A DNA stretch of 64,000 nucleotides from a virus. Below are positions 18,999 through 37,406 of the stretch, in pieces (position 1 is the first letter of the stretch; each line of letters starts with the position of its first letter). Both the position numbers and the translations under genes were made by a program. A model generated the notes under the pieces. It was given only the letters and a program-made list of their open reading frames with translations. It searched no databases and had not been told where the DNA came from. Location of the stretch: IMG/VR virus record IMGVR_UViG_3300027708_000019; one strand, written 5' to 3'.

Positions 18999-19083
18999 TG
19001 GTGCGAGTAGCCAGAATCGAACTGGCACGACCGAAGTCGAGAGATTTTAAGTCTCTTGTGTCTACCTATTTCACCATACTCGC
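18999..19083 (-). tRNA. tRNA-Leu(TAA)
   Basis: Cloverleaf, long variable arm, CCA. Confidence 0.95.
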
Positions 19084-19090
19084 ATTTACC

Positions 19091-19168
19091 TGGAGCACAG
19101 AGTGAGATTCGAACTCACGACTTTACGGATTTGCAATCCGTTGCATTTGACCTCTCTGCCATCTGTGC
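19091..19168 (-). tRNA. tRNA-Cys(GCA)
   Basis: Cloverleaf, loop TTGCAAA, U73-CCA. Confidence 0.95.
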
Positions 19169-19169
19169 A

Positions 19170-19703
19170 CTAATATGCCCACGCTACATACGTATACCTT
19201 ATACCCTTTGTTACTTCTGTTACACTATGTGGGTAGATAAAGGTTGATGGAAACATAATTATGTCTCCCTGCTTCATCTCTATTACTTCTTTGTTCAATA
19301 AAAATTGTCCACCATCATAGTTATCATTTAGTGCTCCCAAAAATGTTAGCACTGGAATACCATCTGTTTTATTTCTGCGTATCAGATCAAAATGTTCTGA
19401 CATCACAGTTCCAGTTTTATACTTGTTCAATCTTATATTGCTATGATTGCTTACAAGGTTTGTTAATTTTAACTCATCGTAGTATTTTTGTAAAGCAATT
19501 TGTAGATATGGTTTTAGAATATCCAAGTTTTTATTGTAAAGAACATCCAACTCTTTAGTGTGTTGTGGTTTCTTTTCATCAGCAACATTGTTATACCAGT
19601 TATGCGTTTTCCATTCTTCATCAGTATCGTACTGTTGAATTACAGTTTCACATATATCTTTGGGCACAACATTAAAAACTCTTACAAAATGTTTTACGTC
19701 CAT
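19170..19703 (-). CDS. 2OG-Fe(II) oxygenase (prolyl-hydroxylase-like)
   Basis: HFD...GG.F...FPSTFIYPHSVTEVTKGIRY intact triad. Confidence 0.9.
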   Translation of the reverse strand: MDVKHFVRVFNVVPKDICETVIQQYDTDEEWKTHNWYNNVADEKKPQHTKELDVLYNKNLDILKPYLQIALQKYYDELKLTNLVSNHSNIRLNKYKTGTVMSEHFDLIRRNKTDGIPVLTFLGALNDNYDGGQFLLNKEVIEMKQGDIIMFPSTFIYPHSVTEVTKGIRYTYVAWAY

Positions 19704-19712
19704 ACGTTTCCT

Positions 19713-19789
19713 TGGTGGGCTGAGTGGGATTCTAACCCACGATCAATCGATTATGAGTCGACTGCTTTAGGACTCTAAGCTACCAGCCC
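19713..19789 (-). tRNA. tRNA-Ile2(CAT), lysidine type (probable)
   Basis: GGGCTGG acceptor, loop CTCATAA, CCA; separate Met and fMet tRNAs are also present. Confidence 0.8.
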
Positions 19790-20023
19790 AAATTTTTTAC
19801 GAATAGCAGCTGGTGCCTGCGTTCCCATAATCCTGTCTACCTCAACACCATCTTTCATCAAGACCAATGTTGGTACACTACGAACTTTAAATTGATTTGC
19901 CATATCTGAATTCTCATCAATATCAACTTCTTCAACCTCAACTCCGAGTGGATCTTTCTCTAACATTTTAGATAAAGACTTACATGGTTGACACCAACTA
20001 GCACTAAACTTAATTACTTTCAT
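19775..20023 (-). CDS. trx: Thioredoxin
   Basis: MKVIKFSASWCQPC...VRSVPT; AGGAG RBS; stop lies inside tRNA-Ile2. Confidence 0.92.
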   Translation of the reverse strand: MKVIKFSASWCQPCKSLSKMLEKDPLGVEVEEVDIDENSDMANQFKVRSVPTLVLMKDGVEVDRIMGTQAPAAIRKKFGLVA

Positions 20024-20040
20024 GTTTTCTCCTGTTAAAT

Positions 20041-20115
20041 TGGCCTCGCCAGCAGGAATCGAACCCACATTATAGGTGTAGAAGACCCATGTATTATCCG
20101 TTATACGATGGCGAG
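20041..20115 (-). tRNA. tRNA-Arg(TCT)
   Basis: Loop CTTCTAC, TTCGATT T-loop, CCA. Confidence 0.88.
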
Positions 20116-20122
20116 AAAAAAT

Positions 20123-20212
20123 TGGCGGTGAGTCAGGGAGTCGAACCCTGTCAGCTACTTTCATAACTGTACGGATTAGCAATCCGCTGCATTACCATCC
20201 TGCCCACTCACC
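20123..20212 (-). tRNA. tRNA-Ser(GCT)
   Basis: Long variable arm, G73-CCA. Confidence 0.95.
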
Positions 20213-20348
20213 TTGTTACTTTACGTAGCAACTTATACCAGTAATATTTAAACCCTCTCCAAGTTGGGAGAAAATTCATGTCCCAGAAAAACCCAACTTC
20301 TTTGGGCACATTTCCGTACGCTTTTTGTAATGTTTCGTCTGACTTCAT
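20208..20348 (-). CDS. Small hypothetical protein (46 aa)
   Basis: MKSDETLQKAYGNVPKEVGFFWDMNFLPTWRGFKYYWYKLLRKVTR; ATGA-coupled to upstream gene. Confidence 0.6.
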   Translation of the reverse strand: MKSDETLQKAYGNVPKEVGFFWDMNFLPTWRGFKYYWYKLLRKVTR

Positions 20349-20932
20349 GTTGGTCCATTCCCATTTTTAAATCCAATCGTTCCACCTTCTTCTTTGATTC
20401 TGTCAATGACTTCTTCAAAAAGAATAGGACGAAAGTCAGTTTGTTCTACGCAAACGCAATGGTAACGTGTGTCAACAATGTCAGTAATTTTGCCACCAAA
20501 TCCAGGTAACATAACTCTATTGCTATGAGTATGTCCATGAATGTTGACACCAAACCTACCAAGACTTTCAGGATGAAGCGGAATATGTGAAAGAATCATT
20601 CCATTCATCACATGATATGCACGCAGTTCACGAAAGTGTTGACGATATTCTTCATCTCTAAAGATATCATGGTTACCACGAATCAGAACCTTATCGCCAT
20701 TCAGTCTACGCATGATTCCCAGTGCTTTCCTGTTAATCACTACGTCACCAAGATGATAAACTTTGTCTGTTGGTTTGACAGTTTCGTTCCATGCTTTTAC
20801 CATGGCTTCATCCATTTCCTCAGGATTATCCCAAGGACGAAGTTTTGTAACACCATCATTGCGAGTAAACTTACAAACACCCATGTGTCCGAAGTGAGTA
20901 TCGCTGACTAAAAATACGCTTGGCATAATCAC
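20345..20932 (-). CDS. Calcineurin-like metallophosphoesterase
   Basis: SDTHFGH, HLGD, GNHD, HGHTH motifs. Confidence 0.92.
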   Translation of the reverse strand: MIMPSVFLVSDTHFGHMGVCKFTRNDGVTKLRPWDNPEEMDEAMVKAWNETVKPTDKVYHLGDVVINRKALGIMRRLNGDKVLIRGNHDIFRDEEYRQHFRELRAYHVMNGMILSHIPLHPESLGRFGVNIHGHTHSNRVMLPGFGGKITDIVDTRYHCVCVEQTDFRPILFEEVIDRIKEEGGTIGFKNGNGPT

Positions 20933-21357
20933 TCCTCCTTGTAAGTTAGTCCAAGAACCTGCATCAATTTTTTCTTCACACGAAGATTTGGTTGACGATA
21001 ATTATCAGTTGGTGTAAATCCCATCATGGTCGCAACTTCAACAACTGCCCCACTGCGACAAATACCAGCAAAACAATGAACGACTACATTCATACGCTGA
21101 TCAAGTGCGCGATTCAACAGAGCAATAATATTTTCTGCTTGCTCATCCTGAAATTTACACTCATCAGGAAAATCATCCTCATCCTCAGCATCAAGAAATT
21201 CAAATTCATGAACCTCTTTGAAGTTGTGTTTGGGGTTTGGCTTCCAACCAGCAGGATCGGTAATGCTAATAAGCATAGCATTCGGTCCAGCATCGTAGTG
21301 AAATCCAGTGTTTACATCAGAAGCTGCTACGTTTTCGATAAATCTAATTGTTTCCAT
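20929..21357 (-). CDS. Protein-tyrosine/dual-specificity phosphatase-like
   Basis: HCFAGICRS (CX5R). Confidence 0.88.
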   Translation of the reverse strand: METIRFIENVAASDVNTGFHYDAGPNAMLISITDPAGWKPNPKHNFKEVHEFEFLDAEDEDDFPDECKFQDEQAENIIALLNRALDQRMNVVVHCFAGICRSGAVVEVATMMGFTPTDNYRQPNLRVKKKLMQVLGLTYKEE

Positions 21358-21363
21358 ACCTAT

Positions 21364-21392
21364 ATTATACCTGATTATTGCTTAAAAGTCAA
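21364..21392 (-). promoter_or_regulatory. Sigma70-type promoter, leaderless
   Basis: TTGACT-17-TATAAT, ATG 6 nt downstream. Confidence 0.85.
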
Positions 21393-21412
21393 TACCCCTG
21401 GAAACTCTTATC

Positions 21413-21488
21413 TGGAGCGGGAGACGAGACTCGAACTCGCGACATCTTGCTTGGCAAGCAAGTGCTCTACCAACTGAGCTACTCCCGC
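21413..21488 (-). tRNA. tRNA-Gly(GCC)
   Basis: Canonical cloverleaf, CCA. Confidence 0.97.
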
Positions 21489-21491
21489 ATT

Positions 21492-21567
21492 TGGCACCCC
21501 CTGATGGACTCGAACCACCGCATGTCGGAATCAAAATCCGATGCCTTACCAACTTGGCGAAGAGGGT
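21492..21567 (-). tRNA. tRNA-Gln(TTG)
   Basis: Cloverleaf, CCA. Confidence 0.95.
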
Positions 21568-21575
21568 ATAATAAA

Positions 21576-21651
21576 TTTGTGGCAGGTGAGGTATCTAGTC
21601 ATTGTCTAGACAACGACTTGCCCATTCTCCTTTTACTTTCCTTACCACAAA
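21576..21651 (-). ncRNA. Unknown structured ncRNA between tRNA-Trp and tRNA-Gln
   Basis: Closing stem TTTGTGGT/GCCACAAA plus inner hairpin AGTCGTTGT-CTAG-ACAATGACT. Confidence 0.55.
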
Positions 21652-21653
21652 AC

Positions 21654-21727
21654 TGGCATCCCGATAGGGACTCGAACCCCAACCAACAGTTTTGGAGACT
21701 GCTATGCTGCCATTACACCATCGAGAT
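21654..21727 (-). tRNA. tRNA-Trp(CCA)
   Basis: Loop CTCCAAA, CCA. Confidence 0.95.
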
Positions 21728-21731
21728 ATTT

Positions 21732-21998
21732 TTACTTTTCTATAACAGCGACAACATGTTCTTCAGTAAGAATAACACGTTGAGCACCTTCAAGAACAAC
21801 AATCTGTGACTTGCCCCAATCAATGAGAACAACATCACCAACATTAACAAGTGTTACTTCTGGACCAACAGCCAACACAGTCGCAGTTTTAGATTCGCGA
21901 GTTGAGTCAGCACCTTCAAGGATAATTCCTGATGCAGTTTTTGTTTCTGCTTTATTCTCTGCAACAAGAACACGTTTTCCTAATGGTTTTGCAATCAT
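21732..21998 (-). CDS. groES: GroES-like co-chaperonin
   Basis: KPLGKRVLV...KTASGIIL...VLAVGP.V..V.VGD.V. Confidence 0.9.
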   Translation of the reverse strand: MIAKPLGKRVLVAENKAETKTASGIILEGADSTRESKTATVLAVGPEVTLVNVGDVVLIDWGKSQIVVLEGAQRVILTEEHVVAVIEK

Positions 21999-22070
21999 AA
22001 TAATCCTCTGTTATTTTAAATTAGTGACATACTACTTATCCTTTTATACTCCGTATGTCAGGGAGAGGTT

Positions 22071-22159
22071 TGGCGGAAGAACTGAGATTCGAACTCAGGG
22101 ACCTTGTTACAGTCGGCAGTTTTCAAGACTGCTGGTTTAAACCACTCACCCACTCTTCC
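22071..22159 (-). tRNA. tRNA-Ser(TGA)
   Basis: Long variable arm, CCA. Confidence 0.95.
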
Positions 22160-22167
22160 TTAAACTT

Positions 22168-22242
22168 TGGCACCCAATGAGAGAATCAAACTCCCAACCC
22201 AGCGTTCGTAGCACTGTGTGATATTCATTTCACCAATCGGGT
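22168..22242 (-). tRNA. tRNA-Arg(ACG)
   Basis: Loop CTACGAA, CCA; atypical T-loop TTTGATT. Confidence 0.85.
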
Positions 22243-22244
22243 AT

Positions 22245-22319
22245 TGGTACCTCGTGACAGATTCGAACTGCCGACCTTCTCCGTGTAAAAGAGACACTCT
22301 ACCACTGAGTTAACGAGGC
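22245..22319 (-). tRNA. tRNA-Val(TAC)
   Basis: Cloverleaf, CCA. Confidence 0.95.
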
Positions 22320-22320
22320 A

Positions 22321-22596
22321 TTATTCTTCAATGAGCATTAAGATTTCTTTCTCAGAAACCATAACTCTTTTCTTTCCTTCTACATCAATCTCGTGTGCTT
22401 TATGCCAATTCACAATACACACATCACCTATTTTTACAGTCTTAGTATCTGGACCAATGCCAAGTACAGTACAGTGCCAAGTGTTTCCACCAACACCATT
22501 TTCTTGACCAAGATCTAACTCAATACCACTTGCTGTTTTTGTATCTTTCTTGTTCTTAGCAAGATAGACCATATCTTTAATTGGTTTAATTTCCAT
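22321..22596 (-). CDS. Second GroES-like co-chaperonin
   Basis: IKPIKDMV...KTASGI...VLGIGPD...VKIGD...VSEKEIL. Confidence 0.85.
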   Translation of the reverse strand: MEIKPIKDMVYLAKNKKDTKTASGIELDLGQENGVGGNTWHCTVLGIGPDTKTVKIGDVCIVNWHKAHEIDVEGKKRVMVSEKEILMLIEE

Positions 22597-22598
22597 AA

Positions 22599-23300
22599 TT
22601 ATCCTTTAATATAACCTGCTTTAATGTGTTCTTCAAGTGTAAGATATCCGTATTCTTCTGGCTTTGGATAAACATACTGATCATAATGGTCAGAGTTTGT
22701 TCTTCCAACTGGCATACAGTTTGCTCCAATAATCATTCTATATGTGCTTGGCGATGGTAGAGCTACATGATTTGCCCAAGACGGAAATATAATTGCCGTT
22801 CCTGGAACAAATGGAATCTGTTCTTGAATCGAGAAAAACTTTCTCGCACCTTTTTTAATTCTAGGCACAATCTGAAACAGATTAGCATTATGATTCTTAA
22901 AAGCAGTACCATTCGCATTACCATCTATATCAAACAAATACAAAACACCTGCTAGAAAGGTATTGGCATGAACATGTTCATGGTGATTGCCACCTTGCTT
23001 ATGTCTGGTTGCCCACATTGATGTAATACCAATATCTTTTTCATAACCACATTTATCCATCACATCCTCAAAACATGATGTAAAAAATTCTGTAACTTCA
23101 GACAGTTGAGGATGTAATGTTTTATCATTTAAATTACCATCAGTAATTTGTAAACCATTACGTTCTCTTTCAACAAAAAAGTTTTTGTCTTGAGCCAAGT
23201 ACGTTGTCAATTCCTTTTGTTTCTTCTGAAAATCAGGAAACTGATAACGCCAAACTGGTGTCGGAAAGAAATCGTGACGATCTAAAAAATTATTGTTCAT
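22599..23300 (-). CDS. Putative 2OG-Fe(II) oxygenase (HxH type)
   Basis: FPTPVW...SMWA...HHEHVHANTFLAGVLY...IFPSWANH...R. Confidence 0.85.
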   Translation of the reverse strand: MNNNFLDRHDFFPTPVWRYQFPDFQKKQKELTTYLAQDKNFFVERERNGLQITDGNLNDKTLHPQLSEVTEFFTSCFEDVMDKCGYEKDIGITSMWATRHKQGGNHHEHVHANTFLAGVLYLFDIDGNANGTAFKNHNANLFQIVPRIKKGARKFFSIQEQIPFVPGTAIIFPSWANHVALPSPSTYRMIIGANCMPVGRTNSDHYDQYVYPKPEEYGYLTLEEHIKAGYIKG

Positions 23301-23526
23301 CTACTTTCTTACCCCAATCAGACACATTCCAAGCACGTTCATGGAAGAAGTACATAATGCTATTTACGACAAGCGCAAAACTAACAACACCAAGTCCTAC
23401 CATCCAGCTACCACTTGCTAACCAACCACCAATAAAATTGGTAATCGTCACAAGGATACGCCATGTAATAACTTTAGCAAGAGATCGTGGAATACGTTCT
23501 TGAAATTTCGTTTTAAAATTAAACAT
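23290..23526 (-). CDS. DUF2061-like small membrane protein
   Basis: RSLAKVITWRI...YFFHERAW. Confidence 0.85.
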   Translation of the reverse strand: MFNFKTKFQERIPRSLAKVITWRILVTITNFIGGWLASGSWMVGLGVVSFALVVNSIMYFFHERAWNVSDWGKKVDEQ

Positions 23527-23543
23527 AATAATTCTCCAAAATG

Positions 23544-23572
23544 AAAAAAGAGCTGGGGTTTATTCCAACTCT
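23544..23572 (-). terminator. Intrinsic terminator after dctP-like gene
   Basis: GAGTTGG-loop-CCAGCTC-TTTTTT. Confidence 0.7.
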
Positions 23573-23575
23573 TTT

Positions 23576-23604
23576 ATTATACTTTACTTTTGATTATTTG
23601 TAAA
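23576..23604 (-). promoter_or_regulatory. Sigma70-type promoter
   Basis: TTTACA-17-TATAAT. Confidence 0.7.
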
Positions 23605-23610
23605 GTTTTT

Positions 23611-24555
23611 TTATGCTTCCTGTATTCGTTGGACTAATCCAGGACTAAAGTATGTAGAGAATCGAGTATATACTTTGGATGTTAATTCTTTAAATTTCGA
23701 TTTCTCTGTTTCATTCATTCTTACTACTTCAACATTATTATCTGCGCATTGTTGTAAGATGTTTGGTATATCTGCTACCGAAGTTTGTCTTTCTTGTCTA
23801 GCAGCATTAAATGCAGCTGTTGACATAATTTCTTGAGTAGCTTCATCAAACTGACTGAAGAATTGTTTATTGACAATAATTGATGTCAAAAACAAACTAT
23901 GTTCAGTGTCATTAACAACTTCGAATGTTTTATGCTGCTCTAGTGGGAACACACGAACGTATGTTGATTCACCAGCTTCAATAAGACCTTGCTCAACAGC
24001 AGAATGCATTTCTTCTAAAGAGATACGATCTTTTGGCACAGCACCAAGCATTTTAAATGTCTCAACAGCAACTGGGCTGCGAGCCACACGAACTTTTTTA
24101 CCACGCCAAGAATCAACTGTATCAGCACGGAAATTAGCAGGAACAATTCTGAACCCACCTGAATATGTAAAACTCATTGCCTTCGTGTTGGAATTTTTCT
24201 CCACACTTGAAAGCAACTCTGCACCGATTTCGCCTTCTAATACACGATCAGCATGATCATGATCTTTGAATAAGAAAGGTAAATCTAATGCATGTAAATC
24301 TTTGTTGTAGTCAGCCAACCATGTTGTGTAGATATGGCTCATTTCAATTTCGCCAGAATCAATCAACCCCATTAAGTCGTCTTTCATAATGTGTTTGCCA
24401 TCATTGTATTTTTCTGAATAATCAGACAATGATAGAACTTCGCACTGGAAATTACCACCAGTCTTTTCATTTACTTCGGCTACAAATGCCTCAGCTACTT
24501 TTACAAAGTAGTCAATTGGTTCATGGGCAATCACCCAACGAATTGGTTTTGTCAT
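23611..24555 (-). CDS. TRAP transporter solute-binding protein (DctP-like), no signal peptide
   Basis: LDLPFLFKDHDHADRVLEGEIG...GFR...GKKVRV...MLGAVP. Confidence 0.88.
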   Translation of the reverse strand: MTKPIRWVIAHEPIDYFVKVAEAFVAEVNEKTGGNFQCEVLSLSDYSEKYNDGKHIMKDDLMGLIDSGEIEMSHIYTTWLADYNKDLHALDLPFLFKDHDHADRVLEGEIGAELLSSVEKNSNTKAMSFTYSGGFRIVPANFRADTVDSWRGKKVRVARSPVAVETFKMLGAVPKDRISLEEMHSAVEQGLIEAGESTYVRVFPLEQHKTFEVVNDTEHSLFLTSIIVNKQFFSQFDEATQEIMSTAAFNAARQERQTSVADIPNILQQCADNNVEVVRMNETEKSKFKELTSKVYTRFSTYFSPGLVQRIQEA

Positions 24556-24588
24556 TTTATCTCCTGATATAAGGTACTATTACAACCT

Positions 24589-24596
24589 TATTTATA
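24589..24596 (-). promoter_or_regulatory. T4-type late promoter
   Basis: TATAAATA upstream of dctP-like gene. Confidence 0.7.
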
Positions 24597-24599
24597 TGA

Positions 24600-25862
24600 C
24601 TAATTTGGCCAATCTATATCATAACGCTGTAAATGGTATTTAAAATATCGTCTTACAGATAGGTTTTTTCTGTTCAAGATTTGGTAGTTGGAATCAAGTC
24701 CAAGTAAATGACGTCCTCTAACATCTTTTCGAACTTCCCTTGGTTTGCGTTTTGAGTTCAAATTTCCCAAAGATTCCAGCTTGGTTTTGAAATGGAAGTA
24801 CCAGTCGTTCTTGTCTAGATCGTAGATATATTGTCGCTGAGCATATTTGTATGTTGCAAGAGTACTACCAATTTTCTGACCATTGTTATTGTTAGCCATA
24901 CTCCATTGTTGATATTCGCCACCATTATACCAGTTTTCCATTGAGTCAATACATTCGCGAATCGGTATGGTATAATTAAAGTAGATCGCACCACGAACTG
25001 AACAATTTAAATACTTGACATTAAAAATTAACCACCAAAAGAAATCGTGTAAACTATGAATAGGAACAGATCCAGTATTGGCATTATGAACATACTTATG
25101 GTACAACAGCCTACCAAACTCACGACCCTCTGGTGTATTGTTATATGATAGATGTTTGATAATTAAATCTTTATACAAACTATAATGAGCATCAGCAGAA
25201 GATATCTTATTTTTGATTGACAATAAGTTTTGTCTTACCTCAGGACTTAAATCCTGAATGTAGTAATCGTAGTTGTGGTATAATTGTAAACCAATTGATG
25301 TACCAAAAATACAATCACCTTCGTCTGCAGTAATTGGTCTATAACCATCACGAATTAAATCATCATAGAAACATGTATATGAATCAATTACTTTTAATTT
25401 ATTGTGTATAAATTTTTCCCAGAATACTGGATTTTCAGCAATACTATGTATGCTGGCGCAGACAACAACTGATTTTAATTCTTCTTCATTTAAGTTTTTA
25501 ATCAACGAAGCAAGAACCAGTGTACTATCCATACCACCAGAATACATCACAACAAGTTTCTCACCATTATGAATTCTTTGACGCATTTGAAGCGCACGTT
25601 CATCAGTAACTTGTTCATACGATTTTGAGAAGTTTGGATCATATGGTGGCATTTCAAATCCAGGAATCAAAGGTTGTTTCCATGGCAACGACCACTCGCC
25701 ATTGCGTGTGACAAATCTATTTTGCGTTAGACGTTTTGCAATATCAATGTAGAACTTTCCACCTGCGCCACATTCTTCTCTGGTCTCTGCCCAGAAACCT
25801 TGTTGTGGGGTTTGGTCTAGTCGAATGTTATAAAAATAAATTGGGTCGTCTAATGCTATCAT
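24600..25862 (-). CDS. AsnB-synthetase-like PP-loop enzyme, copy 1
   Basis: VMYSGGMDST, ADEGDCIFG, DFFWW. Confidence 0.75.
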   Translation of the reverse strand: MIALDDPIYFYNIRLDQTPQQGFWAETREECGAGGKFYIDIAKRLTQNRFVTRNGEWSLPWKQPLIPGFEMPPYDPNFSKSYEQVTDERALQMRQRIHNGEKLVVMYSGGMDSTLVLASLIKNLNEEELKSVVVCASIHSIAENPVFWEKFIHNKLKVIDSYTCFYDDLIRDGYRPITADEGDCIFGTSIGLQLYHNYDYYIQDLSPEVRQNLLSIKNKISSADAHYSLYKDLIIKHLSYNNTPEGREFGRLLYHKYVHNANTGSVPIHSLHDFFWWLIFNVKYLNCSVRGAIYFNYTIPIRECIDSMENWYNGGEYQQWSMANNNNGQKIGSTLATYKYAQRQYIYDLDKNDWYFHFKTKLESLGNLNSKRKPREVRKDVRGRHLLGLDSNYQILNRKNLSVRRYFKYHLQRYDIDWPN

Positions 25863-26575
25863 AAAATTTTCAGATTTGGAACTTCATCAAGGAATTTATA
25901 ATACTCATTGGCAAGAGTAACAACTTTGTTGTAGTCTTTCTCCCAAACACCTTTGATATTATCACGTGCTTCTTCAACACTGTTTGACATATAAAGTTGT
26001 TTCTTTACTTCTTTAATTACACCATCTTCAAATTTGGTTGCGTCTCTATATAATGTTACACCATTCAACCAGTCATTTGGTAAATATTGTTCAGCAAAAG
26101 TTTTGTTATCAACATAATTGACAATCGTATTAGATAAACTCAAAGCATATACACATCTATTAACATACTCAGCGTATTCTTTCAGCTGAATTAACTTATC
26201 GTATCTACTACCTGTGTCAAATTCTTTTGGTAATCCAACTTCAACAAGTTGTGTTGCGTCGTTTAACACTTTTACTGTAGGAATTTGACTGGTAATTAAA
26301 TCAGCAGCAGCACCACGTTTCTCTGCTGTCTTATTGAACACCATGTAATTTAAACAGTTATCATTGGTCATACCACTAGTAATTTTGGGCAGAACATAAA
26401 CTGTGGTCGCGATCTTTGAAGACAAAAGTTGAGCGGTCTGCAGTGTAATCCAGTAATCATAATCATCAAGCATAAGCCAACGATCAAAAATCTGACAGTA
26501 GATACCATTCGTTCTTCTATTTCCTTCCTCGTCGTAGTACATGTTATCTACGATTTTAATAGTGTTACGTTGCAT
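25859..26575 (-). CDS. Hypothetical partner of PP-loop enzyme, copy 1
   Basis: ATGA-coupled upstream gene. Confidence 0.7.
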   Translation of the reverse strand: MQRNTIKIVDNMYYDEEGNRRTNGIYCQIFDRWLMLDDYDYWITLQTAQLLSSKIATTVYVLPKITSGMTNDNCLNYMVFNKTAEKRGAAADLITSQIPTVKVLNDATQLVEVGLPKEFDTGSRYDKLIQLKEYAEYVNRCVYALSLSNTIVNYVDNKTFAEQYLPNDWLNGVTLYRDATKFEDGVIKEVKKQLYMSNSVEEARDNIKGVWEKDYNKVVTLANEYYKFLDEVPNLKIL

Positions 26576-26588
26576 AATTTATCCTTAA

Positions 26589-26662
26589 TGGTGGAGGATG
26601 AGAGAATCGAACTCTCAATAATGACTTGCAAAGCCATGGTTATCCCATTTAACTAATCCCCC
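26589..26662 (-). tRNA. tRNA-Ala(TGC)
   Basis: G3:U70, CCA. Confidence 0.95.
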
Positions 26663-26665
26663 AAT

Positions 26666-26743
26666 TGGTCTCAGTAGAAGGATTCGAACCTTCGACCCCC
26701 TGCTCCCAAAGCAGGTGCGCTAACCAGACTGCGCTACACTGAG
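26666..26743 (-). tRNA. tRNA-Pro(TGG)
   Basis: Cloverleaf, CCA. Confidence 0.96.
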
Positions 26744-26750
26744 TTAATTT

Positions 26751-26825
26751 TGGTGGTGATGGTTGGATTCGAGCCAACGACCCCCTGCGTATGAAGCAGA
26801 TGCACTACCACTGTGCTACATCACC
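26751..26825 (-). tRNA. tRNA-Met(CAT), elongator (probable)
   Basis: Paired 1:72, loop TTCATAC, CCA. Confidence 0.85.
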
Positions 26826-26832
26826 GAAATTC

Positions 26833-26915
26833 TGGTGCCCCAAGAGAGACTCGAACTCTCACGCTTGCGCACTGGCTTCTAAGACCAGCGTGTCTACCAA
26901 TTCCACCATCGGGGC
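26833..26915 (-). tRNA. tRNA-Leu(TAG)
   Basis: Long variable arm, CCA. Confidence 0.95.
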
Positions 26916-26934
26916 ATACTTCTACTTCAATAAA

Positions 26935-27008
26935 TGGTGCCCCCACACAGAATCGAACTGCGGATTGATGCTTACAAGGCAACTGTTATACCATTTAACT
27001 ATGAGGGC
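26935..27008 (-). tRNA. tRNA-Thr(TGT)
   Basis: Loop CTTGTAA, CCA. Confidence 0.92.
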
Positions 27009-27014
27009 AATAAC

Positions 27015-27089
27015 TGGCTCCAGTGGCTGGGATCGAACCAACGACCAATTGATTAACAGTCAACTGCACTACCGCTGTGCTACACTGGA
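27015..27089 (-). tRNA. tRNA-Asn(GTT)
   Basis: Cloverleaf, G73-CCA. Confidence 0.96.
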
Positions 27090-27097
27090 ATAATGAA

Positions 27098-27313
27098 TTT
27101 GTAAGTTGTGCCACCATCGTTATTGGCACCATTCACCTGTTTATACAAGGGCGACCAGGACTCGGTACGTCACTTGGGATTCATCCAGTTGATACGCCAC
27201 CTGTATACCTCCACCGTAAACGGCGATAAGTCGGAATCGAACCGCAACCTTTTACTAACTTGGTCCTTCGAAGAAACTTCATTAGCATGACTTCACTTGC
27301 TGACACTTACAAA
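27098..27313 (-). ncRNA. Unknown ~215-nt structured ncRNA
   Basis: 9-bp closing stem TTTGTAAGT/ACTTACAAA fills the tRNA spacer; internal T-loop motif CGGTTCGATTCCG; GC-rich relative to genome. Confidence 0.65.
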
Positions 27314-27316
27314 ACT

Positions 27317-27393
27317 TGGTAGCGGAGGTTGGATTCGAACCAACGATTCTTGGCTTATGAGACCAAGCGGATAGACCACTTCCATACACCGCA
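27317..27393 (-). tRNA. tRNA-fMet(CAT)-like initiator
   Basis: 1:72 mismatch (U:U), TGCGG acceptor, loop CTCATAA, CCA. Confidence 0.8.
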
Positions 27394-27435
27394 ACAATTA
27401 TATTATGTATATATCTGTTACATACATAAAACAAC

Positions 27436-27511
27436 TGGTGGGACTGCTGGGACTCGAACCCAGAATTGGCAGATTAAAAGTCTGCTGTGATAACCATTTC
27501 ACTACAATCCC
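27436..27511 (-). tRNA. tRNA-Lys(TTT)
   Basis: Cloverleaf, CCA. Confidence 0.96.
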
Positions 27512-27543
27512 ATTCGCTTTCGAACTTTCGTCTTTCGTTTCAT
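27502..27543 (-). CDS. Putative 13-aa Lys/Arg-rich mini-ORF ending inside tRNA-Lys
   Basis: TAAGGAGAAAGTA-ATG, MKRKTKVRKRMGL*. Confidence 0.45.
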   Translation of the reverse strand: MKRKTKVRKRMGL

Positions 27544-27563
27544 TACTTTCTCCTTAAAAAAAT

Positions 27564-27638
27564 TGGTACCCAAGGGTGGGAACGATCCACCGACCCTCGC
27601 CTTATCAAGACGATGCTCTACCACTGAGCTACTTGGGC
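27564..27638 (-). tRNA. tRNA-Ile(GAT)
   Basis: Loop TTGATAA, CCA; T-loop ATCGTTC. Confidence 0.92.
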
Positions 27639-27646
27639 ATTATTAT

Positions 27647-27722
27647 TGGTGCTGCCTAGTAGAATCGAACTACTTTCAATGGTTCTTCAAACCACCGCTA
27701 TGACCACATCAGCTAAAGCAGC
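27647..27722 (-). tRNA. tRNA-Phe(GAA)
   Basis: Loop TTGAAGA, CCA. Confidence 0.92.
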
Positions 27723-27724
27723 AT

Positions 27725-27799
27725 TGGGGTGTCGTATGAGAATTGAACTCATGATGACGGAATCACAATCCGTAGTTTTACCACTAAACTAACAACACC
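27725..27799 (-). tRNA. tRNA-His(GTG)
   Basis: G-1:C73, CCA. Confidence 0.95.
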
Positions 27800-27805
27800 A
27801 TAAGA

Positions 27806-27880
27806 TGGCGGTCTCAAGGGGTAACGATCCCCTTCTTCGACAGTGACAGTGTCGTGTGCGTCCATGAACACTTTGAGACC
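27806..27880 (-). tRNA. tRNA-Asp(GTC)
   Basis: Loop CTGTCAC, G73-CCA; T-loop ATCGTTA. Confidence 0.9.
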
Positions 27881-27883
27881 TGA

Positions 27884-28008
27884 ATAAGTTGGCATTACGA
27901 AGTTTAGCCGTGCATCTTTCGTGCGCACCGAATAGACTGACTGACGTCAGCCCCAAATAACACGCTAGACCCTTTGTCTAGATTGACAGCAACGATAGTT
28001 GCTGTTTA
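27884..28008 (-). ncRNA. Multi-hairpin spacer RNA (unknown)
   Basis: Hairpins ACAGCAAC/GTTGCTGT, CTAGAC/GTCTAG, GGCTGACGTCAGTC, GTGC..GAAA..GCAC. Confidence 0.4.
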
Positions 28009-28093
28009 TGGTGGATGCGGTTGGAGTCGAACCAACAGTGCCAGAGGCGGGAGATTTACAGTCTCCTGGGGTTACCAGTTTTCCTACACATCC
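28009..28093 (-). tRNA. tRNA-Tyr(GTA)
   Basis: Long variable arm, CCA. Confidence 0.95.
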
Positions 28094-28094
28094 A

Positions 28095-28212
28095 TTAGTA
28101 GAATTCTCTGCACTATTTGCCTACGTTCAACAGCTTTACTCGAGTTTACTGTTTATTGCGTAAGTTACATAACGAATGATCAATCCTCTGTGCTTACAGA
28201 GAATTCTACTAA
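28095..28212 (-). ncRNA. Unknown ~118-nt structured ncRNA
   Basis: Perfect 16-bp closing stem TTAGTAGAATTCTCTG/CAGAGAATTCTACTAA exactly filling the Gly-Tyr spacer. Confidence 0.65.
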
Positions 28213-28286
28213 TGGAGCGGAATATCAGAATCGAACTGATGACCGAAGATTGGAAATCTGCTGTTTTACCATTAAACTAATCCCGC
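28213..28286 (-). tRNA. tRNA-Gly(TCC)
   Basis: Loop TTTCCAA, U73-CCA. Confidence 0.92.
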
Positions 28287-28328
28287 AACTATATGGCAAC
28301 CTGAGTGTCTCACGACAAGTCTGCTACC

Positions 28329-28562
28329 ATAGTAAAATACATGAGGATGATCAGCAACAACCATCACCCGATGGCTAACCACGTATTCGTCATACGATTG
28401 GTTGCTTCTCACATTACGTTCCAACTTTCTCCAGCGTGACCACCGTATCCACCTTTCGGCTTCGTTTCCATCTTTCGTGTAATCTAGCGAGAGCCAATCC
28501 GTCGATTGGTTATCCTCTCCTAGATCACCTACTGGTTTTGGTAACCCAATGCATTTTACTAT
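28329..28562 (-). ncRNA. Unknown ~235-nt structured ncRNA
   Basis: Closing stem ATAGTAAAATGCAT/ATGTATTTTACTAT; inner helices CCAATC/GATTGG, ATCTAG/CTAGAT, CGTAT/ATACG, CCATC/GATGG, GAAA loops. Confidence 0.65.
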
Positions 28563-28637
28563 GGTACTCGATGGGGGAATCGAACCCCTCCTTCCTGCCG
28601 TGAAAGAGCAGTGTCCTAACCGATAGACGAATCGAGC
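28562..28637 (-). tRNA. tRNA-Glu(TTC)
   Basis: Loop CTTTCAC, CCA. Confidence 0.95.
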
Positions 28638-28651
28638 ACATGGTGAACAAA

Positions 28652-28683
28652 TTTTTAAAGAACAGTTGGCTGGGCTTTGCCCA
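28652..28683 (-). promoter_or_regulatory. rrn-like boxB hairpin + boxA antitermination signal
   Basis: TGGGC-AAA-GCCCA then TGTTCTTTAAAAA (cf. boxA TGCTCTTTAACA) just before the first tRNA. Confidence 0.65.
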
Positions 28684-28750
28684 TTTAATGTTTCCTGCTC
28701 AGCGTTTTGCTTTTCAGCGTGCTTCGCGTTTTGAAACAACCTCAGAAACA

Positions 28751-28779
28751 ATTATATCTCATTTCTGTTTATTTGTCAA
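28751..28779 (-). promoter_or_regulatory. Sigma70-type promoter of tRNA array (downstream promoter)
   Basis: TTGACA-17-TATAAT. Confidence 0.88.
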
Positions 28780-28800
28780 GCACTATTTCTAGTAGCCTAC

Positions 28801-28837
28801 AAAACAAAAAACCCCAAGGACTTTCATCTCTTGGGGT
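28801..28837 (-). terminator. Intrinsic terminator / attenuator
   Basis: ACCCCAAG-AGAT-GAAA-GTC-CTTGGGGT-TTTTTGTTTT. Confidence 0.88.
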
Positions 28838-28860
28838 ACTTTGGTTTGGAAACTTTTCGT

Positions 28861-28980
28861 TTACCTTACCGTACCCCCACGAATCTCTGGATTGTTATAG
28901 CCAAATGCTGATGTGCGTGTATCTCCAGCCCATGACTTCATGGTCTTATGACTTTGGAGATGTAAACACATTTGTAACAT
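28861..28980 (-). CDS. Putative attenuator leader peptide containing all 20 amino acids (39 aa)
   Basis: MLQMCLHLQSHKTMKSWAGDTRTSAFGYNNPEIRGGTVR*; AAGGA upstream; 3' end GGGGTAC complementary to the terminator 5' arm. Confidence 0.65.
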   Translation of the reverse strand: MLQMCLHLQSHKTMKSWAGDTRTSAFGYNNPEIRGGTVR

Positions 28981-29016
28981 TTGAAATTAAAATCCTTTTC
29001 ATTCATCGAGGTATCA

Positions 29017-29045
29017 ATTATACCTCTTTTATTTATATAAGTCAA
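29017..29045 (-). promoter_or_regulatory. Nested sigma70 and T4-late promoter driving the leader
   Basis: TTGACT-17-TATAAT with TATAAATA (29030-29037) inside the spacer. Confidence 0.85.
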
Positions 29046-36373: not shown

Positions 36374-36940
36374 TTAAAACGATCTAGTATAAGATACGTA
36401 TGTTCGATTAAAAGCATTATCACCATTTACATCATCATAGCCAAGAGAGATACTGTCTTTCTTGGTAATAGCATAACCCAATGAGTAACGAATTGAGTTT
36501 GTTGTATCTGATTTATCAGAAGCAAATGCTGTACGGAAACGATAACCAAGTTTAGCAGTCAAACCTTCAACTGGAGTTTTAACAATAACTCCTGGCTCTA
36601 CTGAGTAGTAAGCGAAATTCTTACCACCAGTAATACGCTCACCAACAGCACCACGTGCGTAACCAGTAATAAAGTTATCACCGATCAATCCCATTTTGCC
36701 TGTAACACCAGCTTCATAACGTGAGGAAACTGTATTTGCAGAATCAGTAGCTGTGTTTAGAATGCTAACATCACCATCGATTTGTTTTGTTAGAGATGTT
36801 TTAACATCTAACTTGTACACATCACTCATGGCTTTACTAGAATCTGCTTCTTGACGTCCATAAGTTACTGTTGCTGAAGTGTCGGCGAATGCCATTGAAG
36901 ATGCAGCGAGCAATGCTGCTGCGATTAGTTTTAATTTCAT
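36374..36940 (-). CDS. Outer-membrane beta-barrel protein (porin-like)
   Basis: Sec signal (AFA), amphipathic strands, C-terminal YTRSF. Confidence 0.8.
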   Translation of the reverse strand: MKLKLIAAALLAASSMAFADTSATVTYGRQEADSSKAMSDVYKLDVKTSLTKQIDGDVSILNTATDSANTVSSRYEAGVTGKMGLIGDNFITGYARGAVGERITGGKNFAYYSVEPGVIVKTPVEGLTAKLGYRFRTAFASDKSDTTNSIRYSLGYAITKKDSISLGYDDVNGDNAFNRTYVSYTRSF

Positions 36941-36964
36941 GTAATATCCTTTAAAAATTCAAAA

Positions 36965-37272
36965 AACAAAATGGCAGGTTCTTCTGTTACGAGGTGAACC
37001 TGCCGAAACCCTAAGCAGTGTTTAGGCTGCTAATGCGTAGACAGAGTCGTTTGCATTTACTTTTTTTATGCGATTTACAGTCGTCATCTACTGTGTTGCC
37101 GTCTCTACTATCTCACCCTGTCGAAACCTAGTCACCCCCATCAAAAGCACTTCTCGTTTTACATTCCCCTGAATACATCATTTCTGGTTCAGCTAATACG
37201 CAAATGCTTTTGGTGGAGGTGGGGAGAATCGAACTCCCGTCCAGAATGCCTTCGCTTTGAAGGGATTACAAC
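36965..37272 (-). ncRNA. ssrA: Circularly permuted (two-piece) tmRNA, tag ANDSVYALAA
   Basis: 3' acceptor half GACGGGAGTTCGATTCTCCCCACCTCCACCA (CCA at 37211) precedes a spacer and the 5' half GGGGGTGACTAGGTTTCGAC (37139); tag ORF 37054-37022. Confidence 0.93.
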
Positions 37273-37274
37273 AA

Positions 37275-37406
37275 TTACTTAACTGCTTGAGTGTGCTTGT
37301 GTTTCAAAGACTTCTTAAGCAGTTTCATCCAAAACTTCTTAACCTTGTCTGCTTTATGCTCGACTTCGGCTTTGTTTAGTTTTAAAATTAGTGCCTTAAC
37401 TTTCAT
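37275..37406 (-). CDS. Small basic hypothetical protein (43 aa)
   Basis: MKVKALILKLNKAEVEHKADKVKKFWMKLLKKSLKHK...; ATGA-coupled. Confidence 0.6.
   Translation of the reverse strand: MKVKALILKLNKAEVEHKADKVKKFWMKLLKKSLKHKHTQAVK

Follow-up and report, generated by a model that had tools for sequence, protein, structure and literature searches.

We examined a 64,000-nucleotide stretch of viral DNA from the IMG/VR record IMGVR_UViG_3300027708_000019 (hereafter the window), in which a small open reading frame (ORF) and an intrinsic terminator precede a large array of transfer RNA (tRNA) genes on the minus strand. The stretch belongs to a 105.9-kb IMG/VR contig (CheckV completeness ~65%) of an uncultured freshwater T4-like phage. 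The assignment to T4-like myoviruses comes from PHROG matches (gp5-like baseplate hub with lysozyme, baseplate tail-tube cap, NrdA and DNA primase), and the public runs holding the stretch are freshwater and lake metagenomes. An earlier reading of the letters by a model, here called the original prediction, had proposed that the ORF is the leader of a ribosome-sensing attenuator controlling the array. Along the minus strand the elements follow one another in the order MazG-like gene, promoter P1, AAGGA, leader ORF, terminator, promoter P2, boxB/boxA-like stretch and tRNA-Glu. The features on which the argument rests are the following.

29017..29045, minus strand: P1, a sigma70-type promoter (TTGACT-17-TATAAT, 11 of 12 consensus positions) predicted to drive the leader transcript
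28993..28997, minus strand: Shine-Dalgarno-like AAGGA, 12 nt before the ATG
28861..28980, minus strand: leader ORF, ATG start, 39 codons plus stop, encoding MLQMCLHLQSHKTMKSWAGDTRTSAFGYNNPEIRGGTVR (20 amino acids, 31 codons)
28833..28877, minus strand: predicted antiterminator hairpin, -18.4 kcal/mol, ~16 bp
28801..28842, minus strand: intrinsic terminator with A-tract, CCCCAAG...CUUGGGG stem and U6GU4, -16.4 kcal/mol
28751..28779, minus strand: P2, a consensus promoter 3' of the terminator (12 of 12 positions)
18999..28637, minus strand: tRNA array, the proposed regulated target, with 26 tRNA genes covering all 20 amino acids
28637-28562, minus strand: tRNA-Glu, the first tRNA of the array

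The leader ORF (28980-28861) was recovered with exactly the coordinates and the content that had been claimed for it, that is, all 20 amino acids in 31 different codons. These include four Gly, three Thr and three Arg codons, as well as two of the three Ile codons, with ATA missing. The leader engages 23 of the 24 anticodon species of the phage, a number that was not attained by any of 50,000 background windows, whose average is 15.9. In a single genome the all-20 composition alone is not decisive. Given the composition of this phage's proteome, a stretch of 39 residues would hold all 20 amino acids with a probability of 0.0035. The 106-kb genome has 147 ATG ORFs of 35-45 amino acids, and a single one among them, the window leader, has the full set.

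The leader ORF is probably translated, although the signals for this differ between clades. The 12-nt distance between AAGGA (28997-28993) and the ATG, noted by the original prediction as a caveat, is correct, and a spacing of 11-13 nt is kept within the window's clade, where the 5' untranslated region measures 30-38 nt. Most other clades are leaderless instead of carrying AAGGA: in at least 30 of 73 related units, exactly 6-7 nt separate the end of the -10 box from the ATG, so that a leaderless mRNA with AUG as its 5' end is predicted. An overlapping 22-codon ORF from the ATG at 29006, mentioned earlier as a possible complication, does exist, but it is not conserved and was set aside; among related contigs (which bear L numbers here) L003 and L012 no longer have its ATG, and in L002 it runs into an immediate stop.

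Between the ORF and the array, two mutually exclusive hairpins can be drawn. The terminator consists of a stem at 28836-28812 with an 11-nt loop, followed by T6GT4 at 28811-28801. Near the end of the ORF, GGGGTAC (28877-28871) is the exact complement of GTACCCC (28839-28833), and reading of the letters confirmed this perfect match. The antiterminator described on that basis is borne out and would exclude the terminator, but it is more than a 7-bp pairing: it is predicted as a composite hairpin of ~16 bp with the stop codon inside. Its 5' arm is made of the last five codons and the stop (GGGGUAC-GGU-GG-AAAC), and its 3' arm ends in GUACCCC, which includes the CCCC of the terminator. This hairpin is the minimum free energy (MFE) structure predicted for the nascent RNA before the 3' arm of the terminator exists.

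The same arrangement recurs in many related phages. DNA patterns taken from the window ORF found only five close IMG/VR relatives and one metagenome contig (L109), with all other matches being chance hits inside unrelated genes. These five IMG/VR contigs and L109 form a close clade with a homologous P1-ORF-terminator-P2 unit, whose peptides of 37-40 amino acids each contain all 20. By way of the MazG-like neighbour, more distant loci were identified in which a homologous ORF of 32-42 codons, flanked by a promoter on one side and a conserved terminator on the other, immediately precedes the tRNA array. We also searched IMG/VR with a pattern for the terminator only, which is blind to the ORF and returned at least 80 loci. 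Among the matches listed, an ATG ORF of 28-45 codons accompanies the terminator in 77 of 80 and ends 21-32 nt upstream of it. Altogether, more than 100 related contigs retain the ORF as an open frame with its sequence itself poorly conserved, which agrees with the original expectation of a short, sequence-variable ORF before tRNA arrays, and the element is widespread among freshwater T4-like phages. For 69 units the downstream sequence was long enough to look for tRNA genes, and in every one of them a tRNA gene follows on the same strand, 13-509 nt after the T-tract and usually at a spacing of 55-59 nt. A promoter-like site between terminator and first tRNA is present in 21 of these units and none was detected in the other 48, so the leader promoter is the only one detected upstream of those arrays.

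When the relatives are compared, the amino-acid composition appears to lie far beyond chance. For this purpose all loci were pooled into a set of 73 unique peptides (among the matches listed, with two probable non-members), of which 42 contain all 20 amino acids, 26 contain 19 and three contain 18. Very divergent members of 34-38 amino acids hold all 20 as well. Background windows of 39 codons from phage genes have a mean of 15.7 amino acids and a probability of 0.002 of holding all 20. The excess extends to codons, as anticipated by the original prediction, with 31.3 distinct codons in 39.3 against 24.4 in the background. Rare amino acids occur about once per leader (mean copies: C 0.97, W 0.99, H 1.03, Y 1.04, D 1.06), each being found in 67-71 of 71 peptides; Val also has about one copy (0.97-1.06 range) and is present in 52 of 71. 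The sole copy of C, H, Y or D occupies 7-9 different alignment columns and the sole V is spread over 14, while W is fixed in a single column (71 peptides). Such turnover can be followed in pairs like MQKH and MHKQ, or FGY...END and DVF...IEY. Inheritance alone would not explain the composition, because the sole copies move among columns while their presence is kept.

Codon usage points in the same direction, towards coverage of tRNA species. Both codon boxes are used in 92% of leaders for Ser (40% in the background), in 88% for Arg (24%) and in 95% for Leu (57%); GGR and GGY codons of Gly are found together in 85% (38%) and ATA together with ATY codons of Ile in 81% (26%). The boxes of Ser, Arg, Leu and Gly are all doubly covered in 68% of leaders against 2% of background windows. 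Within the window's clade, the ratio of nonsynonymous to synonymous substitution rates (dN/dS) is ~1, variable columns are distributed 14/16/14 over the three codon positions, and indels among close relatives are in frame or compensated. Substitutions simulated at random sites left the ORF open with a probability of 0.30-0.45 and kept all 20 amino acids with a probability of 0.01-0.06 per relative; when placed at the observed sites, the corresponding values were 0.65-0.96 and 0.21-0.80. With the latter values, the close clade alone cannot separate coding selection from constraint at the RNA level.

Both helices are conserved and covary. In an alignment of 71 sequences (62 distinct) that covers the 3' end of the ORF and all that follows up to and including the U-tract, the terminator helix is 96.8% paired across the 62 distinct relatives and has 6 covarying pairs, in line with the strong terminator originally described. 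The antiterminator pairing is kept family-wide at 85%, compared to 40-59% in controls with slid partners; double changes occur at nine pairs, and the observed covariation score was reached by 0 of 500 shuffles. The stop codon takes part in this as well, its third base changing in step with the position it pairs with (A-U in 35 sequences, G-C in 16; TAA with T, TAG with C), and between clades the arm pair is exchanged (GGGGGTAC:GTACCCC versus GGGGGTTTTGG:CCAAAACCC). The covarying antiterminator/terminator pairing that the original prediction expected in related phages is thus present for both helices. Folding with a masked ribosome gave a probability of the terminator of 0.94-1.0 in 71 of 71 units when the ribosome stood at the stop codon, and a mean of ~0.6 (range 0 to 1) otherwise; this equilibrium calculation is informative only for the stop-codon position, since mid-ORF values are scattered. 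For the complete segment, the antiterminator is the MFE structure in several units.

We consider it probable, though well short of certain, that this unit, placed at the head of the phage tRNA array, works as a ribosome-mediated transcription attenuator of the trp/his type, with a leader that would sample nearly the whole tRNA pool. The geometry of such attenuators (competing helices, a terminator and the end of an ORF within the antiterminator), already pointed out in the original prediction, is supported by the comparison of relatives. In the proposed mechanism, P1 would start a short transcript, and ribosomes would translate its 39-codon ORF as RNA polymerase advances; the antiterminator, being transcribed first, would form by default. 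A lead ribosome keeping pace up to the last codons or the stop would melt the antiterminator 5' arm, the terminator (28842-28801) would form and transcription would end. If the ribosome lagged in the first ~30 codons, the antiterminator would persist and polymerase would read through the boxA-like site into the tRNA genes. As the ORF carries every amino acid, usually once, and in most of the family also both codon boxes of Ser, Arg, Leu and Gly, the transit time would depend on nearly the whole tRNA pool, and the element would act as a sensor of decoding capacity with negative feedback on the array's own products. From the ORF, its composition, the competing helices with their covariation and the invariable tRNA linkage, all documented at the level of sequence, we infer that termination is regulated and in which direction it would respond.

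A further step is put forward only tentatively, as possible but somewhat less than probable. The leader could work as an AND-gate on the whole decoding pool, in which any shortage would switch the complete tRNA set on and the new tRNAs would switch it off, giving a homeostatic, inducible circuit of supply and counter-defence. Conceivable causes of shortage are host tRNA decay in infection, amino-acid starvation and cleavage by host anticodon nucleases, although the link to these nucleases and to counter-defence is purely inferential. The original statement that a stall on any codon leads to read-through would hold for the first ~30 codons; it would not hold for 2-4 of the 20 amino acids of the window leader, which lie too close to the antiterminator.

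Several observations weigh against the attenuator, or limit its reach. With a ribosome edge at +12 nt, a stall would spare the antiterminator for 16 amino acids of the window leader, with E, I, P and V in the shadow; realistic footprints place 16-18 of the 20 at inducing stall positions in the window and 17-20 in the family, Asp and Glu usually being too close. Val is absent from 19 leaders, and V-less leaders with complete arrays (L131, L135, L121 and L156) retain tRNA-Val. No correlation between leader composition and the array was found in a tiny sample that included these V-less leaders. Both the AUG and the Shine-Dalgarno-like site of the window leader are base-paired in the MFE fold. At equilibrium the terminator is strongly favoured in the window's clade (probability ~1.0 in most modelled states), and the case there rests on co-transcriptional kinetics. 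The whole transcript folds into a long hairpin (z = -4.5) with some compensatory pairs within the ORF, so that part of the conservation could be RNA-structural. In the window, P2 with its 12/12 match stands between the terminator and the tRNAs, and the array needs no read-through; the second promoter at 28779-28751 and the bypass which the original prediction had warned of are both borne out, and since P2 feeds the array in the window's clade, the attenuator can only add to or time expression there. Finally, in L006, L009 and L010 a tRNA-Cys follows the MazG-like gene by ~15 nt (at about 3010, 672 and 3294, respectively) with no leader unit in between, which means that the attenuator is not universal in the group.

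The DNA around the two promoters and before the first tRNA contains further features.

29332-29042, minus strand: MazG-like gene, the upstream neighbour of P1
29030..29037, minus strand: TATAAATA, a T4 late-promoter motif nested in the P1 spacer, of putative function
29008..29026, minus strand: inverted repeat GAGGTAT-AATTG-ATACCTC, bracketing the P1 -10 box
28683-28671, minus strand: boxB-like hairpin GGGCAAAGCCC, just before the first tRNA
28663-28651, minus strand: boxA-like TGTTCTTTAAAAA, just before the first tRNA

P1 at 29045-29017 and the late motif nested in it were both found where the original prediction had placed them, and P1 is kept in L003, L012, L002, L095 and L109. In 24 of 73 related units, the motif TATAAATA stands beside or inside a sigma70 promoter, no more than 130 nt upstream from the leader ORF, so that transcription of the leader may take place early as well as late. 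The 3' half of the 29008-29026 repeat (ACCTCG...) is the 5' end of the sigma70 transcript; in the MFE fold this window 5' end (ACCUCG...) pairs with the G-run at the ORF 3' end, which makes it a candidate anti-antiterminator (1:2-type hairpin) on modelling grounds. Most relatives are leaderless and do not have this segment. The P2 -10 hexamer is also bracketed by an inverted repeat (CAGAAA...TTTCTG, ~28742-28766, minus strand), and in -10-bracketing repeats of relatives (e.g., L003 3560-3590) the arm sequences differ while complementarity is kept; such repeats could be an operator or a hairpin feature of the promoter. The boxA-like site reads TGTTCTTTAACAA in L003 and L012, and a strict pattern finds the motif in 28 of 69 related units (the boxA consensus being about TGCTCTTTAACAA). 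By analogy, the boxB/boxA-like stretch may provide antitermination of the ribosomal RNA operon (rrn) style for the untranslated array. An insertion of ~75 nt lies between P2 and the boxA-like site (28664-28740) relative to L003 and L012, and a similar stretch is found in L017.

Database searches returned little that resembles the element. Nucleotide (blastn, with the unit) and translated (tblastn, with a family peptide) searches of 50,697 phage records turned up nothing beyond matches to tRNA-Glu and noise, with no cultured carrier among them. An Rfam search of 28790-29045 with E values up to 1 produced no match, curated leader families included, and Pfam gave none for either the window peptide or the L042 peptide. 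The 40-amino-acid L042 peptide had one match among 5.8 billion proteins, a hypothetical protein of 64 amino acids. A 6S-RNA-like reading of the long hairpin was considered and dropped, as it found no Rfam support and the leaderless clades do not have the 5' half.

Other explanations of the unit have to be weighed against these data. If it were a stand-alone gene for a small protein, a monocistronic P1-ORF-terminator unit would make a 39-amino-acid peptide and merely lie beside an array expressed from P2. The unit's own promoter and terminator, with P2 following in the window, the wide conservation of the ORF and its recurring motifs (GW, xRx, GGFGK) would all fit such a gene. A folded or binding peptide, however, would not be expected to let its sole C, H, Y, D and V wander among 7-14 columns with their presence kept, and the window's clade shows neither a dN/dS below ~1 nor a third-position bias. 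Moreover, the codons for GGFGK and GGTVR form the arm of the antiterminator and vary in concert with the terminator flank, and the 48 of 69 units without a promoter-like site before the tRNA place the terminator inside the only detectable tRNA transcription unit. With no Pfam match and a single called homologue among the 5.8 billion proteins, we regard this explanation as quite unlikely. A small RNA that is structured and non-coding, similar to the small stable RNAs from the tRNA region of T4, and whose open frame is incidental would account for the long hairpin and its z value, for compensatory pairs inside the ORF (e.g., CCATG/CATGG versus CCATC/GATGG), for close-clade substitutions without third-position bias and for AAUCCAGAGAU, which is invariant and mostly unpaired within the window's clade. 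It gives no reason for all 20 amino acids or both codon boxes, though, nor for a frame that stays open in those 77 of 80 listed loci despite deep divergence and length changes, nor for the coincidence of ATG and predicted transcription start, which is exact in at least 30 of 73 units. The long 5' hairpin is specific to the window's clade, the leaderless clades being without the 5' region, and no Rfam family matches, all of which makes this explanation very unlikely.

The structural evidence is shared by a reading in which the unit is a translation-coupled attenuator that reports something more general, such as ribosome availability, transcription-translation coupling or the stage of infection, or in which the main output is the terminated transcript or the sigma70/late timing. 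With each amino acid used once, the transit time would be insensitive to any single tRNA, whereas classical leaders amplify their sensitivity by codon runs. The position of Asp and Glu, usually too near the antiterminator for sensing, the coexistence of V-less leaders with tRNA-Val genes and the 24 of 73 units in which TATAAATA neighbours the sigma70 promoter also agree with a general gauge. However, such insensitivity does not need rare amino acids, yet Cys, Trp and His are kept in 94-100% of leaders, and the enrichment of both codon boxes and of ATA points to a sampling of tRNA species. We therefore judge a general gauge to be unlikely, though not negligible, and retain the attenuator that samples the tRNA pool as the preferred explanation.

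Some observations concern the rest of the phage and its array. ARAGORN calls a permuted transfer-messenger RNA (tmRNA) at 36931-37321 on the minus strand with the tag ANDSVYALAA, and Rfam assigns this region to beta_tmRNA (151.9 bits) and tmRNA_permuted (147.9 bits). The match hints at a betaproteobacterial host, and a tmRNA together with a full tRNA set suggests that the phage brings much of its own translation support. Inside the array there are long spacers without a tRNA (28291-28566 and 27098-27313, minus strand). Contigs from RNA libraries with high depth map to 28410-28488 with mismatches, and other organisms are a possible origin of these. Exact 151-nt RNA-library contigs cover 28819-28969 (ORF) and 28676-28826 (spanning the T-tract); they give no strand and no ends and may stem from DNA carry-over, so they were not used as evidence of expression, and the parts left uncovered by such contigs carry no meaning.

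Little is known about how phages regulate their tRNA arrays, which have been discussed as a supplement for decaying host tRNA and as a counter-measure to tRNA-cleaving defences. A full-text literature search yielded no description of such a leader before tRNA genes, and judging by its sequence features a tRNA-array leader with a complete amino-acid set would be a form of control for which we found no published description. If the proposal is true, classical attenuation is extended from one amino acid to the whole decoding pool (20 amino acids, ~25 codon classes), and tRNA genes gain a feedback loop through their own products. The element also shows that what a peptide is composed of, and not its sequence, can be the target of selection. 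It is compact (~200 nt), is conserved in over 100 contigs and offers clear points for a test, namely the start codon, the place where the stop lies and both competing helices; it could serve as a portable reporter of translation capacity.

Known systems resemble the phage element in different parts. Stable-RNA operons are controlled at initiation, by guanosine tetraphosphate (ppGpp) and the initiating nucleoside triphosphate, and by antitermination with Nus factors; they are not known to use a translated leader with a terminator switch. The phage unit has in common with rrn operons a boxA-like TGTTCTTTAA(A/C)AA before the first tRNA and strong consensus promoters, but would differ from them by such a leader. 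In the T4 tRNA region, species 1 and 2 (rnaC/rnaD) are non-coding RNAs processed from the tRNA precursor. They are likewise short non-tRNA transcripts at a T4-type tRNA cluster, whereas the phage element combines a promoter of its own and a conserved ORF with a terminator switch, and showed no sequence similarity in the phage collection. Upstream ORFs are also used as sensors of translation in toiL-topAI of E. coli, where the ORF senses translation stress and acts through Rho (PMC12121999), and in macrolide-type leaders such as msrD (PMC10314930) and mef/mel (PMC4335068), where stalling on a short ORF switches downstream expression. As far as the sections of these papers at hand go, such leaders are like the phage leader in that a short upstream ORF reports stalling, in some cases via an intrinsic terminator, but they respond to antibiotics and specific arrest contexts, and for none of them do those sections describe a complete amino-acid set or control of tRNA genes.

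The closest likeness is to the attenuators of amino-acid operons (trpL, hisL, leuL, pheL, as well as thrL and ilvL). Shared with them are the short leader ORF, the intrinsic terminator before the regulated genes and an antiterminator that uses the 5' arm of the terminator while its own 5' arm would be occluded by a ribosome at the end of the ORF. The proposed sensing of ribosome speed, dependent on charged tRNA, and feedback by the operon's own product would be common to both as well. The leader peptides of E. coli and Salmonella contain runs of codons for the amino acid or acids of their operon, thrL and ilvL being multivalent. The phage leader has no such runs; every amino acid appears about once, in ~31 codons. 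Most members of the phage family, unlike these attenuators, are leaderless and without an obvious 1:2 pause or anti-antiterminator hairpin. Finally, amino-acid operon attenuators control biosynthetic enzymes, whereas the phage element stands before the tRNAs themselves.

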